This document shows positions 46,737-52,958 of a stretch of 64,000 bases of DNA, one piece after another (the first letter of the stretch is position 1; every line of letters begins with the position of its first letter). This DNA comes from Escherichia coli (GTDB lineage Bacteria; Pseudomonadota; Gammaproteobacteria; Enterobacterales; Enterobacteriaceae): NCBI RefSeq assembly GCF_003334765.1, contig NZ_QOWT01000020.1; one strand, written 5' to 3'. The notes under the pieces were generated by a model. That model ran no database searches and was not told the origin of the DNA. It saw only the letters and a list, made by a program, of their open reading frames with translations. Position numbers and translations under genes: made by a program.

Positions 46737-46744
46737 ACACGGCT

Positions 46745-46775
46745 GCCGGATGCGGCGTAAACGCTGCATCCGGCA
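46745..46775. repeat. REP palindrome between hscC and djlC
   Basis: gccggatgcggcgtaaacgctgcatccggca. Confidence 0.8.
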
Positions 46776-46795
46776 TCGGCGCAAAAAACACATCG

Positions 46796-48247
46796 TCAGC
46801 TAAACAACATCGCGATTTTGCCGAGAGCATAACCTATCACCAGCACCGTTAAACTGATTTTGATAATGCTGGTAATGCTCTGTGGTTTTTCACCCTCATC
46901 ATTTTTTTCTTCATGATTTTCAGGTGTTGGCTCATCGACATCTTCATCCTCCGGCTCGAGTTTCACTTTCGTCAAAAGCATCCGGGTGACAATGGCCTCT
47001 AATGGATGAGCATCTCCGCCTTCCAGCCTTGTATTAAGACGGGCCAGCATCTCTTGTTTCGGAAACGCTTCAAGTACTACCTGTTCCGCTACCCGATACA
47101 AATCCAGGAACGGTGAATCTTGCTCTGTCTCGCTACCGACTCTCGATTTCCACCACGCCCATGCTTTGCGCTTGAAGAATAACGACTCAATAAACGATTG
47201 ACCTAACGGCGATAATTTTCCGCTATGTAAAATCTCCGCCCATAACAGCCGCGTCCGGGCGCTCTCACCAGGAACATATTTCAGCGGTTGACCTTGCGCA
47301 TCTACCATGCTCCGCGCTTCGATAACCATCACTAATAACGCGAAATAATCCGGGCAATGACGCTTGCTCCACTGCAACAACAAATTATCAGCTTGTGTAG
47401 ATGGGTAACTTTCCCAGTACGCGCAGAGATCGGCAAGCAGGCTTTCCCCCTCGCCGCAGTACAAACGTTGTGCACACAAGTAATACCGGGCATCTTCGCT
47501 TTCTGGTTCTTCCGTTTGCCACTGTTGAGCGACAGGAATGAGTTCCGCCATACCTGTTTGCACCGAGCTGTACCAGCGCAACAGTTTGCGATGTAACTTT
47601 GCATCATCAGGAATTAACCACGGACCTTCCATCGCCAAAAACGCAGTGACATAGTCAGGATGGTAACGGCAGCAACGTTCCAGCGCGAAGTAATACTCAA
47701 CAGTCTGGTTCTGCAACGCAATGGGATATTCCAGAAGGCTAAGGAAATCGAAACAATCACCAGCCTGAATGGCCTCAAGAAAAGCCTCCCTTTCTTCCTC
47801 ATCCATTCCTTCGCTGTCATTAAATGAATGCCAGTTCAAACGCTCTGCCAGCAAAGAAGCACAATTTAATGAAAGATATCGCGCTTCTATGGCGATTGCA
47901 CACAGCGGCCAGCGTAATTGATCGACATCCTCCATGTTCCAGGTATTTAATTGCTGAATAAATTTCTGCCAGGCGGAAGGCTGAAAACGATCACTTTCTG
48001 AATCCAGTAATGTCCTGAATGCACGTAGTATTTCATGTTCAGCGGCAGCATCTTTTTCTTCATCATCTGCTTCCTCGACAGGATTTACCGCCAGTCGCAG
48101 GGCCTCTTCATAGGCCTGGCGTAATGCTTTAAACCCTTGCGGATCGGTTTCGGGATGACACAACGGTAAGCGAGCAAGATAAGCCTGGCGGATAATGTCT
48201 ATTTGCGTCGTGCTTTCAATTTCGAGGATTTGCCAACATGTTTTCAT
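46796..48247 (-). CDS. djlC: J-domain co-chaperone DjlC (YbeV) with hydrophobic C-terminal tail
   Basis: 483-aa [52 protein letters not shown]...; C-terminus ...[20 protein letters not shown]. Confidence 0.92.
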
Positions 48248-48951
48248 AGGTCGCTCACATCCTTAAGCGTTACCGGGCATTCAGACTGGACAGTTAATGG
48301 CTGCCAGGGAAGCGTGGCATAGAAACGATCGCTTCCCGCTGCCAGCTCTTCGAACATACGACTCCCGGCGCTATCGTATTTGTACAGGGTTAGCGCCTCG
48401 CGTAGCGAAGTGTTGTCTTCGCACTGAGAAGATTGCCAGTAGAGACGTCCTAACGAATAGGCGGAAAAATAGTGCATCCAGCTGTGATAGTAATGGTGAG
48501 CTCGTACATAGACGCGCGATTGCAGCCATAAACTCTCTTCTTCCGTCAGCCACTTGTTGAGCACACCGACCCGTGACAGAAACCCCATTCGAACATAATC
48601 CCAGGCTTTGATTCCCCCTTCCCCACAGCACATAGCGGTTTGGGCAACGAATTGGGTATAAATCAACCCTCTCTCCGAGCCACCAGCAATTAATGCTTTC
48701 CACTCTTCAGGGGAAGAGCGATGCCATGTCAGATATAAGCCAGCTAAATCATTGGCATGACCATCATCAGTCATCTGATAAATAGTCTGAATTAAATCAT
48801 CACGATTATTTATTCCCCAGGATGATGAGAGCTCGAATTCTTTTATCCCAGTATACATTTTTGGCGAGTCATGCGCGGGTTTGCAACCCTGATTAAGTAT
48901 TTCCATGGGCGCAGAAAGCGCAAAAAGAAGATATTGTTCTTCCTTATTCAT
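48244..48951 (-). CDS. ybeU: DUF1266-like protein YbeU
   Basis: 235-aa [36 protein letters not shown]...; its stop overlaps the djlC start by 4 nt. Confidence 0.9.
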
Positions 48952-49052
48952 TTGTTAATAATCCCTTAAGTGCATTAACTGACTACTTTTTTATTATTGA
49001 TGAGTATAAACTTGACGCTTTCAAAATAAAAAGAAAATCGAAGCATTCACAC

Positions 49053-49607
49053 ATGAATAAAAAATTAATGTATATATTCGCAATTTTTATAGTTGCAGCA
49101 ATTACCTGTATTAGCCAACCCAAGAAAACGACGTTGCGTGATAAAGCCATGGTGAATTATGCCTTTGATTATTTAAGCTCACCGGGCAGTCTTCCATTCA
49201 CCACGGCAGCCACGGAGCTTTCCGCGATTCATGGTCACTCAACGTCGCAATATCGCCTTGGAGAATTTTATCTTCATGGTAGCGACGGTAAACCACTGGA
49301 TTATACACAGGCGAGATACTGGTATGAGCAATCAGCGGAACAGGAAAATCCACGCGCGCAAAGTAAACTGGGGTGGATCTACCTCAAAGGTCTGGGGGTC
49401 AAACCCGACACCCGTAAAGCAATTCTCTGGTATAAGGAAGCAGCTGAACAAGGGTATGCTCATGCTCAATATACTTTAGGTTTGATCTACAGAAATGGCT
49501 CAGGTATTAATGTTAACCATTATGAATCTCAAAAATGGTTAAAACTGGCCGCCAAACAACATTACAAAAATGCGGAAAGATTACTTGCCGGGCTTCCCGC
49601 ACATTAA
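49053..49607 (+). CDS. ybeT: Sel1-repeat protein YbeT with N-terminal hydrophobic segment
   Basis: 184-aa [26 protein letters not shown]...; repeated ...YxLGxxYxxGxGVxxDxxxAxxWYxxAAxQG... units. Confidence 0.9.
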
Positions 49608-49616
49608 CGTCGACTG

Positions 49617-51044
49617 TCACCCGAACAGATGGAGTATTTTCCCTATCAAACCAGCAAAGATAAAAATATAGAAAATAATTTTAATGATGCCCAGACAGCC
49701 AGGCCCACCATCGTCAACGGGCATTGGCTGCGGTTGCGGCTCCGGTTCAACAGTTTGCTTCTCGGTAAAATTCGCCGCCTGAATTAATAATCGACGAATA
49801 ATTAATGCTTCCAGTGGACAACGATTTTCTGCATCAAGGCGGCTCACAATCGGCATTAATGATTCTTCTGTAGGTTGGCAGGCCTGCACTAATTGTTTGG
49901 CAACTAGATATAATGGCCATAAGGTATGTTCTGTATCACGCGTGAGTGAGATCCGCGGCTTACGTCCTTTGTGCAAAACCATCTCGACCAGTGAACGCCC
50001 CAGCGCAGAGAGTTTTTCATCGCTGAGTATTTCGTATAAATGAAAACGCGTACGGGCGCTGTCGCCGGGGACATAAAGTAGCGGTTTTCCCTGATCGTTA
50101 ACCAGATCACGCGCTTCAATCATCATCACCAGTAATGGGTAATAATCGACCCGATGCTGACGGCACCATTGCAACATTAAAGCATCCGCCTGGGTGGAGG
50201 GATACTCGCGCCAGTAGTCACAAAGTTCTGCCAACAGGCTTTCGCCTTCTCCACAATAGACGCGTTGCGCGTATTCATAATAAGGCGCATCTTCATTATC
50301 AGGTTCAGTTTCCCGCCATGACTGGGCGTAATCCAGAAGTTCGGGGATATCCAGGCGACCTGCGCTATACCAGCGGAGTAAATTTCTGTGCAGTTTTGCA
50401 TCATCGGGGATAATCACTGCGCGATGTTGCGCTAAATACAATGTCAGCCATTGTGGATGCGATGACCAAATCCGAGCGAACATTTGGTAAAAATCGATGG
50501 TGTCATTTTGCACGGCAACGGGCAGATGCAGAATGGTCTGGAAGTTAAAAACATTCCCCTTCGCAATGGCATATAAAAAGGATTCCAGTTCTTCTTCGTC
50601 TATTTCCCCGGTATTTTCCTCCTGTAACCACCGCAATCTTTCTGCTAATAACACCACGCACTCGAAGGATAAATGGGCAGTGTTCATGGCGATTGTGCAC
50701 AGCGACCAGCGTAATTCATCAATCTCCTCCATCGAGCAATAATTTAATTGCTGAATGAATCGCTGCCAGGCGGAGGGCAGAAAACGTTCACTATCAGAGG
50801 CAAGTAACGCACGAAAGGCGAGCAGAATTTCATGTTCTGCTACCTCATATTCTTCTGGTTGCCAAACAGATTTAGCAGGCGACTGCGCAATCCGTAGCGC
50901 CTCCTCATACGCCTGACGAAGTTGTTTAAAACCCTGCGGATCGGTTTCTGGATGAAAGGACGGTAACAGCGCCAGATAAGCGCGGCGGATAATATCGACG
51001 TCAGTCGTTTCCTCTATATCGAGGATCTTCCAGCAATTTTTCAT
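49617..51044 (-). CDS. djlB: J-domain co-chaperone DjlB (YbeS) with hydrophobic C-terminal tail
   Basis: 475-aa [52 protein letters not shown]...; C-terminus ...[23 protein letters not shown]. Confidence 0.92.
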
Positions 51045-51748
51045 AGGTCGCTCATATCCTTAAGCGTTTCCGGGCATGCAGAATAGTAAGCCAATGGTTG
51101 CCAGGACAAGGTAGGGTAATACGCATCATCACTGGCAAATAATTGATAAAACATATCATTGCCGGAATCGTCGTATTCTTTACGCGCTAAGAATTCGCGT
51201 AATAAAGGCAGATGATCATCTTCGGGAGACTGCCAATATTGCCGACCAAAGGTATAACCGGCAAAGTATTGCCGCCAGTTACTATAATAACGTAGAGCCC
51301 GTAGATGAATGCGCGACTGGATCCATAGACTTTCTTCTTCGCTCAACCAGTTATTAAGTACGCCCATTCGGCTTAAAAAACCCATCCGGACATAATCCCA
51401 GGCTTTGATTCCCCCTTCGCCACAGCATTCGGCGGTGCTGGCGACAAATTGCGCATAAGCCTGACCTTGCTCATTTAGTTCAGCAAGATAGTCACGCCAT
51501 TCACATGGCGAATAACGAAACCAGCGGTGATAAAACCCTGCCAACCGAGCGGCATGACCGTTATCGATCATTCGGTGAATTGTGCGCAGCAGGTCATCAC
51601 GGTCATCAATTCCCCATGAGGAAGAAAGGTCAAAAAAGCATGTACCTAAATACATTTTGGGTGATGAATGCGAAGGTAAACAGCATTCATTGCGTATTTC
51701 CATCGGAGTGGAAAGTGCAAACAATATTTTTTGCGACTCCATGTCCAT
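51041..51748 (-). CDS. ybeR: DUF1266-like protein YbeR
   Basis: 235-aa [36 protein letters not shown]...; paralogue of YbeU; 4-nt overlap with djlB. Confidence 0.9.
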
Positions 51749-51911
51749 ATAATTTATCCTTAAATATTCATTAAATGAATATTAGCCGCATTGCGAGGCT
51801 CGTTTATTTATACTTTTCTGACGCGACATAATACGCATAAAATAAGGCTTACGCAAAAATGGAACACATAAAAATATAATATGTTTTATCTGCAACCATA
51901 AGGAAATGATA

Positions 51912-52889
51912 ATGATTTTCACGTCAAGTTGCTGCGATAATTTATCAATAGATGAGATTATCGAACGTGCTGAAAAAGGCGATTGCGAGGCTCAATATAT
52001 TGTTGGGTTTTATTATAATCGCGATAGCGCAATTGATTCTCCGGACGACGAAAAAGCCTTTTACTGGCTGAAGCTGGCCGCTGAGCAAGGTCATTGTGAA
52101 GCACAGTATTCCTTAGGGCAAAAGTATACCGAGGATAAAAGCCGTCATAAAGATAATGAGCAAGCCATCTTCTGGCTGAAAAAAGCTGCCCTACAAGGCC
52201 ATACTTTCGCTTCCAACGCCCTTGGCTGGACACTGGATCGTGGAGAAGCCCCCAATTATAAAGAAGCGGTTGTCTGGTATCAGATAGCCGCGGAGAGCGG
52301 AATGTCTTATGCGCAAAATAATCTTGGGTGGATGTACAGAAATGGCAACGGAGTCGCAAAAGACTATGCGCTGGCATTTTTCTGGTACAAACAAGCTGCA
52401 TTACAAGGCCATAGTGACGCGCAAAACAATCTGGCCGATCTTTATGAAGACGGAAAAGGCGTTGCTCAAAACAAGACACTCGCCGCATTCTGGTATTTGA
52501 AAAGCGCACAGCAGGGTAATCGGCACGCCCAGTTTCAAATTGCATGGGATTATAACGCTGGCGAAGGGGTGGACCAGGACTATAAGCAAGCGATGTACTG
52601 GTATCTGAAGGCTGCCGCTCAGGGGAGCGTCGGCGCTTACGTCAACATCGGTTATATGTATAAACACGGACAAGGCGTTGAGAAAGATTATCAGGCTGCC
52701 TTTGAATGGTTTACGAAAGCCGCTGAATGCAATGACGCCACTGCCTGGTATAACCTGGCCATTATGTATCACTACGGAGAAGGAAGACCTGTCGATCTCC
52801 GACAGGCTCTCGACCTGTATCGTAAAGTTCAGTCATCCGGAACCAGAGATGTCAGTCAGGAAATTCGTGAGACTGAAGATTTACTGTAG
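51912..52889 (+). CDS. ybeQ: Sel1-repeat protein YbeQ
   Basis: 325-aa protein MIFTSSCCDNLSIDEIIERAEKGDCEAQYIVGFYY... with at least seven Sel1-like repeats; start at the second in-frame ATG of the track ORF. Confidence 0.88.
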   Translation: MIFTSSCCDNLSIDEIIERAEKGDCEAQYIVGFYYNRDSAIDSPDDEKAFYWLKLAAEQGHCEAQYSLGQKYTEDKSRHKDNEQAIFWLKKAALQGHTFASNALGWTLDRGEAPNYKEAVVWYQIAAESGMSYAQNNLGWMYRNGNGVAKDYALAFFWYKQAALQGHSDAQNNLADLYEDGKGVAQNKTLAAFWYLKSAQQGNRHAQFQIAWDYNAGEGVDQDYKQAMYWYLKAAAQGSVGAYVNIGYMYKHGQGVEKDYQAAFEWFTKAAECNDATAWYNLAIMYHYGEGRPVDLRQALDLYRKVQSSGTRDVSQEIRETEDLL

Positions 52890-52958
52890 AGATAAAAACA
52901 AGGGCCGGGGAATTTCATTCGGCCCATATTCTCTTTATTGCTGTGCGAAATCAGACTA

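Follow-up and report, generated by a model that had tools for sequence, protein, structure and literature searches.

Ends of convergent transcripts in Escherichia coli

Overlapping bidirectional terminators between convergent genes were reportedly described by Ju et al. in 2019. They were also described by Wang et al. in 2023, with ynaJ-uspE as the model pair (bioRxiv 10.1101/2022.10.23.513370), and 306 have been counted among 704 E. coli convergent pairs (bioRxiv 10.1101/2022.10.23.513370; 10.64898/2026.03.23.713779). Termination of this kind depends on trailing polymerases and is most effective at pairs with high expression (bioRxiv 10.1101/2022.10.23.513370).

The expressed, tightly packed pairs zapC/ycbX, yccX/tusE and tatD/rfaH have their transcript ends 70–450 nt inside the partner gene, partly through the action of Rho (PMC7815308). 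The + strand 3' end of zapC is at 1006586, 92 nt past the stop and within ycbX, and Rho termination regions of this pair are found at +1006647 (antisense to ycbX) and −1006040 (antisense to zapC). The − strand 3' end of tusE lies 86 nt past its stop, within yccX (1030252/3), and rfaH has a Rho region at 4024259, 74 nt past the stop and within tatD (PMC7815308).

Interference by convergent or antisense promoters is represented by the work of Callen (2004) and Shearwin (2005), both cited by Brophy & Voigt 2016 (PMC4731013). Interference grows with the strength of the opposing promoter, and repression is incomplete even when that promoter has rrn strength; weak promoters are the most sensitive (PMC4731013).

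The junction between ybeT and djlB in E. coli brings two genes together tail to tail. The best explanation, to which we give a probability of roughly 0.6, is that this is an ordinary junction at the joint of a duplication, with a modest djlB terminator, a ybeT transcript ended by Rho and an overlap that is a by-product.

The ybeT–djlB junction

The window, which is the whole 64,000-nucleotide stretch of DNA that was analysed, contains the ybeL-ybeQ-ybeR-djlB-ybeT-ybeU-djlC-hscC locus of E. coli. The gene names are backed by the RefSeq annotation of strain MG1655 and by identical or near-identical E. coli genomes, and an MG1655 coordinate is obtained as 728459 minus the window coordinate. The features around the junction are:

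49053–49607, + strand: ybeT coding sequence, 184 aa, stop TAA at 49605–49607 (annotation and Pfam)
49608–49616, no strand: spacer between the stop codons, 9 bp, CGTCGACTG
49617–51044, − strand: djlB coding sequence, 475 aa, with a J-domain, stop TGA at 49617–49619 (tca on the + strand)
51041–51748, − strand: ybeR, DUF1266, 235 aa, overlapping the djlB start by 4 bp

YbeT is made from three Sel1 repeats (residues 64–98, 100–135 and 136–169; Pfam) and a 15-residue tail, and DjlB is a tail-anchored co-chaperone (PMC8215388). The 4-bp overlap with the djlB start makes ybeR-djlB one operon, and this transcription unit is listed in PMC3946193.

The open reading frames, 49053–49607 (+) and 49617–51044 (−), agree with the stop positions and the 9-bp gap given in a preliminary description of this DNA. 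That description also held that each transcript must extend antisense into the other gene. The 9-bp spacer forces any 3' UTR into the neighboring gene, as Term-seq has shown for expressed tight pairs (PMC7815308), and a 3' overlap of the ybeT and djlB transcripts is expected. This is an ordinary tail-to-tail junction, which the annotation of E. coli K-12 has contained for decades.

To obtain a base rate, the annotation of MG1655 was inspected by eye for convergent pairs in five 50-kb blocks (250 kb). There were 38, of which eight, ybeT/djlB included, have a gap of 9 bp or less. The seven among the 37 other pairs have gaps of −4, −38, −4, +2, −4, −113 and −4, so about 19% of the sampled pairs (roughly one in five) are equally tight. 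Extrapolated, the count of 38 gives about 700 convergent pairs genome-wide, which matches the 704 that have been reported (bioRxiv 10.64898/2026.03.23.713779). The spacing of ybeT and djlB is not unusual in E. coli.

The spacer keeps its length, with substitutions at three of its nine positions, in E. whittamii and in two other Escherichia, sp. E1V33 and sp. MOD1-EC7003, which all share the stem and U-tract described below. No ancestral state with a longer spacer was found among the contig-scan matches, which came from these three species and from distant Pseudomonas homologues. About 570 complete E. coli genomes have kept ybeT and the junction while losing most of djlB and all of ybeR, so the pairing of ybeT with djlB is dispensable.

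A candidate djlB terminator inside ybeT

The preliminary description had found neither hairpin nor terminator at the junction. This is correct for the spacer itself, since nine bases are too few to hold a hairpin, and for the ybeT direction. It does not hold for the djlB direction, where folding reveals a hairpin followed by a run of U:

49570–49602, − strand: candidate intrinsic-terminator hairpin of djlB, GUGCGGGAAG, 13-nt loop, CUUUCCGCAU (folding)
49554–49569, − strand: U-rich tract UUUUGUAAUGUUGUUU directly after the hairpin

The hairpin lies within ybeT codons 173–184, the last 12 codons of that gene, and 15 nt past the djlB stop. Its stem has 10 bp, five of them G-C pairs, and an energy of −12.1 kcal/mol (z = −1.82, with 10 of 200 shuffles equally good). 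The 61-nt context folds with −18.8 kcal/mol (z = −2.76, equalled by 3 of 200 shuffles). Directly 3' of the stem is UUUUUGUAAUGUUGUUU, counting the stem's closing U, so that five U residues and then more U-rich sequence adjoin the stem. Among the aligned Escherichia, only one of the first nine bases past the stem varies (G or A), and the sequence further 3' is variable. The djlB 3' end is predicted at about 49562–49567, corresponding to about 678,892–678,897 on the MG1655 + strand.

In terms of what is usual for an intrinsic terminator, there is a stable, G+C-containing stem-loop, the margin of which over shuffles is modest, and a U-rich tract directly 3' of the stem; the loop, typically 3–8 nt, is 13 nt here. 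The consensus scan for terminators allowed loops of 3–8 nt only, and missed the hairpin for this reason. The hairpin is thus atypical for an E. coli intrinsic terminator in its long loop, its modest energy and its location in coding sequence. Rfam gave no match at the ybeT/djlB junction.

Two G·U pairs in the stem make the hairpin strand-specific, and the same DNA folds with only −7.6 kcal/mol on the ybeT-sense strand (z = +0.23). Across seven Escherichia sequences, 70 of 70 stem cells are paired. Three substitutions occur in the stem (C-G to U·G, A-U to G·U and G·U to A-U), and pairing in the djlB sense is kept by all of them. All three changes are one-sided, with no double-sided compensatory change, and the covariation test, which has no shuffle contrast, is uninformative. 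The conservation may simply reflect selection on the coding sequence of YbeT.

The same observations bear on an alternative in which the hairpin is a chance structure in the ybeT coding sequence and both transcripts read through into the partner gene, where Rho or decay would give them diffuse ends. Such a reading would account for the z of only −1.82 and the 13-nt loop, for a conservation that YbeT coding constraint can explain, and for the lack of double compensatory changes, and Rho regions inside the partner are documented for zapC/ycbX and tatD/rfaH (PMC7815308). It fits less well with the five U residues and further U-rich sequence directly after the stem, with a position only 15 nt past the djlB stop, or with the strand-specificity given by the G·U pairs and the three out of three substitutions that keep djlB-sense pairing. 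We consider a chance structure unlikely, and retain the hairpin as a candidate terminator for djlB.

Probable read-through from ybeT

No intrinsic terminator in the ybeT sense was found after the stop by either consensus scan or folding. Two features are relevant in this direction:

49869–49888, + strand: nearest terminator-like site in the ybeT direction (consensus scan), weak, with 3 G-C pairs and a poor T-tail
49608–49720, + strand: stretch past the ybeT stop, antisense to the djlB 3' end (composition, folding)

The former is the only terminator-like site for ybeT and is situated about 260 nt inside djlB. The latter is poor in G+C, has an excess of C over G (GC skew −0.14 to −0.23) and does not fold significantly, which would permit Rho loading on untranslated ybeT read-through.

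The coordinates, the hairpin with its strand asymmetry and conservation, the base rate of tight junctions, the paralogy described below and the behavior of analogous pairs are observed. We infer that the djlB hairpin terminates transcription and that the ybeT transcript would be ended by Rho, with negligible interference between ybeT and ybeR-djlB. The djlB transcript most likely ends at the modest intrinsic terminator in the last 12 codons of ybeT. Its predicted 3' UTR has a length of about 50 nt and, given the terminator-like hairpin and U-tract, the part that overlaps ybeT in antisense is probably only about 43 nt. For ybeT, transcription most likely continues, without translation, into the 3' part of djlB until Rho stops it within a few hundred nt, as mapped for other tight pairs. 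The short 3' overlap would then be a by-product of compact packing and duplication history, and not a device for mutual exclusion.

Expression of the locus

Upstream of ybeT and of ybeR lie two divergent promoter regions:

48952–49052, no strand: divergent ybeU/ybeT promoter region, AT-rich (35% G+C)
51749–51905, no strand: divergent ybeR/ybeQ promoter region, AT-rich

Over-production of SlyA raises the ybeT transcript 4.1-fold and ybeU-djlC 2.8-fold, and both transcripts are listed in the H-NS regulon (PMC5797941). SELEX with the RpoD holoenzyme gave a peak in the ybeQ/ybeR spacer, which also carries an H-NS flag (PMC3946193). This H-NS evidence comes from genome-scale lists and not from a study of the ybeT/djlB locus. 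The levels of DjlB, DjlC and HscC are too low for proteomics to detect (PMC8215388), and fusions in the wild type showed strong expression only for slyA, not for ybeT or ybeU (PMC7417354). The full supplement of Adams et al. 2021 (Term-seq, PMC7815308) lists no 3' ends or Rho regions for ybeT, djlB, ybeR, ybeU or djlC, nor any within MG1655 678,600–679,199, and neither SMRT-Cappable-seq nor TERMITe has 3' ends at the ybeT/djlB locus.

The locus is almost silent under standard conditions. Since both units are flagged for H-NS and their proteins and 3' ends are undetectable, they would tend to be off together, and polymerase collisions would consequently be rare. The H-NS flags on the ybeQ/ybeR promoter region and on the ybeT transcript argue for co-silencing.

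These data bear on the proposal of the preliminary description that mutual interference or antisense regulation could make the expression of the two units exclusive, taken here to mean polymerase collisions in convergent ybeT and ybeR-djlB transcription, and antisense pairing. The 9-bp spacer does force a 3' overlap, no intrinsic terminator stands in the ybeT direction, the junction is conserved across Escherichia, and weak promoters are those most prone to interference (PMC4731013). However, djlB has a terminator-like hairpin, about 19% of the sampled convergent pairs are as tight, and both units are very weakly expressed and jointly flagged for H-NS. Repression also scales with the opposing promoter, with not even rrn strength being fully repressive (PMC4731013), about 570 complete E. 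coli genomes do without most of djlB and all of ybeR, and in Pseudomonas the partners hscC and a J-protein gene themselves overlap tail to tail. Exclusive expression is not supported by this evidence, and we regard it as very unlikely.

A low expression level also matters for the idea that the junction is an overlapping bidirectional terminator, at which polymerases pausing at the hairpin are released by head-on and trailing collisions to give precise 3' ends for both genes. This is a convergent pair with a hairpin at the overlap, and the class spans hundreds of E. coli genes (306 among 704 pairs). The hairpin is not found in both transcripts, however: the − strand folds with −12.1 kcal/mol (−18.8 in context), and the + strand only weakly, with −7.6 kcal/mol and a z of about 0. 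Release would require trailing polymerases and is favored by high expression, whereas this locus is near-silent, and the expected 3' ends are absent at the locus from Adams 2021, SMRT-Cappable-seq and TERMITe. There is accordingly little chance that a bidirectional terminator operates here.

A further reading concerns the derepressed locus, when SlyA or LeuO acts against H-NS. The approximately 43-nt complementary 3' ends of the djlB and ybeT mRNAs, or longer ybeT read-through, would then form double-stranded RNA that is cut by RNase III. If true, this would couple the decay of the messages for the Sel1 protein and the J-protein and set their ratio, but we think it highly improbable.

The surroundings of the junction have 9 promoter-like sites, compared with 14.6 in shuffles, and no claim of an antisense promoter is made for this reason. 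One promoter-like site is located inside the djlB 3' end (49693–49665, − strand); under the improbable reading just given, it might even be the source of a separate antisense RNA, about 95 nt long, with its end at the hairpin.

A tandem duplication

The genes djlB and ybeR have paralogues on the other side of ybeT, where two more features are found:

46796–48951, − strand: paralogous ybeU-djlC operon (sequence comparison)
46737–46795, no strand: spacer of the paralogous junction between hscC and djlC, 59 bp

The identity between YbeR and YbeU is 59%, and that between DjlB and DjlC, compared over their full length, is 50%; YbeT and YbeQ, both Sel1 proteins, share 36%. The gene order Sel1 (+), Djl (−), DUF1266 (−) is present twice at the locus, in two adjacent copies that also agree in the orientation of the paralogues. 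The locus is thus a tandem duplication of a module made from a Sel1 gene and a DUF1266–J-protein operon, with its joint at the djlB stop.

In an alignment with YbeQ, the 15-residue tail of YbeT falls on the first helix of an additional Sel1 repeat. This is suggestive of a truncation of ybeT by the duplication, although the alignment is too short to decide the matter.

The spacer between hscC and djlC contains a REP-like palindrome, which folds with −31.4 kcal/mol on one strand and −28.7 kcal/mol on the other, and has a sub-threshold REP/naRNA4 match in Rfam. In Pseudomonas, the homologous J-protein gene and the hscC homologue, the gene of its partner chaperone, are convergent, with stops that overlap tail to tail; in this gene family, tight convergence is thus compatible with proteins that work together.

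Significance

The junction is of little importance in itself, as roughly a fifth of E. coli convergent pairs are of this kind. There is a modest gain in a concrete, testable candidate for the djlB terminator, embedded in codons of ybeT, and another in the recognition of the junction as a tandem-duplication joint in the HscC chaperone locus. Should antisense regulation prove to be real, the pair would join the existing examples of regulation by 3' overlap.

Comparison with known systems

The pairs zapC/ycbX, yccX/tusE and tatD/rfaH resemble ybeT/djlB in having stops that overlap or are a few bp apart, leaving no room for an intergenic terminator. Those three pairs are expressed and their ends are mapped, whereas the ends of ybeT/djlB are predicted. 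Unlike them, ybeT/djlB has a hairpin and U-tract in one direction and would not depend on Rho alone.

With intrinsic terminators, the djlB hairpin shares a 10-pair stem followed by UUUUU, a position 15 nt past the stop and a single direction of action. It differs from them in its 13-nt loop and in being placed wholly within the coding sequence of another gene, and it is a predicted structure.

Like the overlapping bidirectional terminators, ybeT/djlB combines convergent genes with a hairpin where both polymerases would cross. Unlike these, it folds well on one strand only, its overlap is in coding sequence and not in the spacer, and its expression is probably too low for trailing-polymerase collisions.

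The interference systems and ybeT/djlB alike consist of face-to-face transcription units that share transcribed DNA. The known cases need a strong aggressor promoter, whereas the ybeT and ybeR promoters are probably weak and are flagged for H-NS. They are also about 0.56 kb and 2.1 kb away from the junction, and the candidate djlB terminator would limit the overlap to about 43 nt.

The hscC–djlC junction is like that of ybeT and djlB in its gene family (DjlC and DjlB), its convergent layout and its low expression. It is unlike it in its spacing, with 59 bp and a REP-like palindrome in place of 9 bp and no REP.

The ybeT/djlB Junction

Over the 2.2 kb around the ybeT/djlB junction, the sequence matches E. 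coli chromosomes at 99.9-100% identity, and the RefSeq annotation of these names the genes ybeU, ybeT, djlB and ybeR. According to the MC4100 and MG1655 annotations, the gene order in the window orientation is gltL-rihA-hscC (+), djlC-ybeU (-), ybeT (+), djlB-ybeR (-), ybeQ (+), ybeL (-) and leuS (MG1655 coordinate = 728459 minus window coordinate). The ORFs and the sequence bear out the stop positions and the 9-bp spacing of the preliminary description:

49053..49607, plus strand: ybeT ORF, TAA stop at 49605-49607
49608-49616: spacer between the ybeT and djlB stops, 9 bp, CGTCGACTG
49617..51044, minus strand: djlB ORF, TGA stop (tca at 49617-49619)
51041..51748, minus strand: ybeR, overlapping the djlB start by 4 bp

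Because of this 4-bp overlap, “J-protein operon” is a fair label for ybeR-djlB, which is also listed as a unit in PMC3946193.

Predicted Transcript Ends Past the Two Stops

Since nine bases are too few for a hairpin, the question shifts to what each transcript meets beyond its own stop. In the djlB direction, folding reveals a candidate hairpin that starts 15 nt past the stop and lies within ybeT codons 173-184:

49570-49602, minus strand: candidate djlB intrinsic-terminator hairpin, 10-bp stem GUGCGGGAAG / CUUUCCGCAU, 13-nt loop
49569-49554, minus strand: tract directly 3' of the stem, UUUUGUAAUGUUGUUU

In the djlB sense, the hairpin folds with -12.1 kcal/mol (z = -1.82; 10 of 200 shuffles were equally good) and its 61-nt context with -18.8 kcal/mol (z = -2.76; 3 of 200). 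A consensus terminator scan overlooked it because the loops permitted were 3-8 nt only. Two of the stem pairs are G.U and therefore become A.C mismatches when the same DNA is folded in the ybeT sense, which yields only -7.6 kcal/mol (z = +0.23) and has no U-tract behind it. An atypical, unidirectional intrinsic terminator for djlB is thus a plausible candidate. If the hairpin terminates, the djlB 3' UTR would be about 50 nt long and overlap about 43 nt of ybeT.

In the ybeT direction, no terminator of the gene's own was found, the 93 nt past the stop being devoid of significant structure (z = -0.94), and the sole terminator-like site is a weak one at 49869-49888. The stretch past the stop has more C than G (skew -0.14 to -0.23) and a low G+C content, a suitable kind of sequence for Rho, which would act on the untranslated RNA there. 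The earlier statement that the junction lacks a hairpin or terminator consequently holds for ybeT, but not for djlB, which has a candidate hairpin and U-tract.

A promoter-like site (TGGGCA-17-TATATT, 9/12 matches) is located inside the djlB 3' end at 49693-49665 on the minus strand. RNA from this site could be about 95 nt long, stop at the hairpin and be antisense to the ybeT 3' end. The site is probably due to chance, since shuffled sequence contains more promoter-like sites than the region does.

Conservation and Natural Variants

Of 5426 complete E. coli genomes, 4278 carry the 161-bp junction, 3585 of them with at least 99% identity. E. whittamii, Escherichia sp. E1V33 and Escherichia sp. 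MOD1-EC7003 likewise have a 9-bp gap, in which three positions vary. The stem's 3' arm does not change among them, and within the nine bases that come right behind it a single position differs (G or A). The 5'-arm substitutions among seven sequences (C-G to U.G, A-U to G.U and G.U to A-U) keep the djlB-sense pairing in all three cases, and none of the seven displays two-sided compensation. As the region is also coding, stem conservation is suggestive rather than decisive support for the hairpin.

One deletion allele lacks about 2.8 kb (window ~49745-52550), including most of djlB, the whole of ybeR and ybeQ's 5' part. Still present are ybeT, the 9-bp junction and a djlB 3' remnant of 126 nt, as in E. 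coli EcPF18 (L002 6718-7183), with a slightly stronger hairpin (-12.6 kcal/mol). Such alleles occur in about 570 of the 5426 genomes, a figure that is the difference between two genome counts. In one strain, E. coli HCP6S3_I1 (L018 1024-2740), an IS1 at the junction cuts ybeT to 543 nt and leaves djlB as a fragment without its C-terminus. The existence of these alleles and of the interrupted strain shows the ybeT/djlB pairing to be dispensable in nature.

A 384-bp contig labelled Caballeronia mineralivorans PML1(12) encodes DjlB residues 1-65 with 100% identity to E. coli and is most likely E. coli contamination in a draft assembly.

Origin of the Junction

YbeR and YbeU share 59% identity, DjlB and DjlC 50% all the way from residue 1 to the tail anchor, and the Sel1 proteins YbeT (three repeats) and YbeQ (eight repeats) about 36%. 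The locus is a tandem duplication of a Sel1 gene and its opposing DUF1266-J operon, and the joint is the djlB stop/ybeT stop junction. The YbeT tail beyond its third repeat resembles the initial helix of a fourth YbeQ repeat, with which YbeT's last 15 residues (170-184, window 49560-49604) align (NAERLLAGL vs DAQNNLADL); the bases that encode the tail also carry the candidate djlB terminator. This likeness hints at a possible truncation of ybeT at the joint.

Two other convergent junctions of the locus have longer spacers:

46737-46795: hscC/djlC spacer (paralogous convergent junction), 59 bp, filled by a REP-like palindrome
52890-52958: ybeQ/ybeL convergent spacer, 69 bp, hairpin at 52902-52925

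Folding energies of the palindrome are -31.4 kcal/mol on one strand and -28.7 kcal/mol on the other, and its spacer gives a sub-threshold Rfam match to naRNA4 (29.8 bits vs a gathering score of 59.5). The ybeQ/ybeL hairpin likewise forms in either strand, at -16.4 and -17.6 kcal/mol, and on the minus strand UUGUUUUUAUCU comes behind it; it may serve ybeQ and ybeL as a two-way terminator.

Expression and Proposed Interference

DjlB, DjlC and HscC were under the detection limit in quantitative proteomics (PMC8215388). The ybeQ/ybeR spacer yielded a SELEX peak with RpoD holoenzyme and carries an H-NS-site flag (PMC3946193). SlyA over-production raises ybeT 4.1-fold and ybeU-djlC 2.8-fold, both of which are in the H-NS regulon list (PMC5797941), and among the slyA, ybeT and ybeU fusions, the wild type strongly expressed that of slyA only (PMC7417354). 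Given this low expression, the H-NS flags and the AT-rich promoter regions (about 35% G+C in both), the converging ybeT and ybeR-djlB units tend to be silent together.

Repression by antisense transcription grows as the opposing promoter becomes stronger and is incomplete even with one of rrn strength (Brophy & Voigt, PMC4731013). The promoters lie roughly 560 bp and roughly 2.1 kb from the junction, and with both of them weak, polymerase collisions should be rare. No data set setting ybeT directly against ybeR-djlB expression was found. The proposal that the two are expressed in a mutually exclusive manner is without support, and several lines of indirect evidence argue against it.

Comparison with Other Convergent Pairs

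For a base rate, every change from plus to minus strand within five 50-kb blocks of the MG1655 annotation was read. This gave 38 convergent pairs; scaled to the whole genome, the number would be about 700, which agrees with a reported 704 (bioRxiv 10.64898/2026.03.23.713779). Gaps of 9 bp or less occur in 7 of the 37 other pairs (19%; small sample, rough 95% interval 8-35%): zapC/ycbX (-4 bp), sxy/yccS (-38), yccX/tusE (-4), ypdC/fryA (+2), yfeH/ypeB (-4), bioP/metR (-113) and tatD/rfaH (-4). The 9-bp gap of ybeT/djlB is not unusual.

That transcripts must run into the neighbouring gene was rightly proposed, since Adams et al. (2021; PMC7815308, supplementary tables) map such ends at tight pairs. 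A plus-strand 3' end (1006586) falls 92 nt beyond the zapC stop, opposite ycbX, and Rho terminates in regions at +1006647, also antisense to ycbX, and at -1006040, antisense to zapC. A minus-strand end at 1030252/3 lies within yccX, 86 nt past the tusE stop, and a Rho region at -4024259 within tatD, 74 nt past the rfaH stop. Running into the opposite gene is routine behaviour of tight pairs, and a 3' overlap of the ybeT and djlB transcripts is expected. The uncut tables have no entry for ybeT, djlB, ybeR, ybeU or djlC, nor at MG1655 678,600-679,199; the locus is transcribed too weakly for 3'-end mapping under the conditions used. The junction is an ordinary, already annotated case of a common class.

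Pseudomonas palmensis, P. entomophila and a Pseudomonas MAG each have a gene for a DjlB/C-like J-protein of 905-957 aa that faces an hscC homologue tail to tail (55-56% identity with E. coli HscC), and the ends of the two genes overlap:

L012 3470-3473: overlap of the stop regions, CTAG
L011 6676-6682: overlap, 7 bp
L009 6099-6105: overlap, 7 bp

DjlC is cited as stimulating E. coli HscC (Kluck et al. 2002, as cited in PMC8215388). Together with the Pseudomonas overlaps, this suggests by homology that zero-spacing convergence in the J-protein/HscC family joins proteins presumed to cooperate, the reverse of mutual exclusion.
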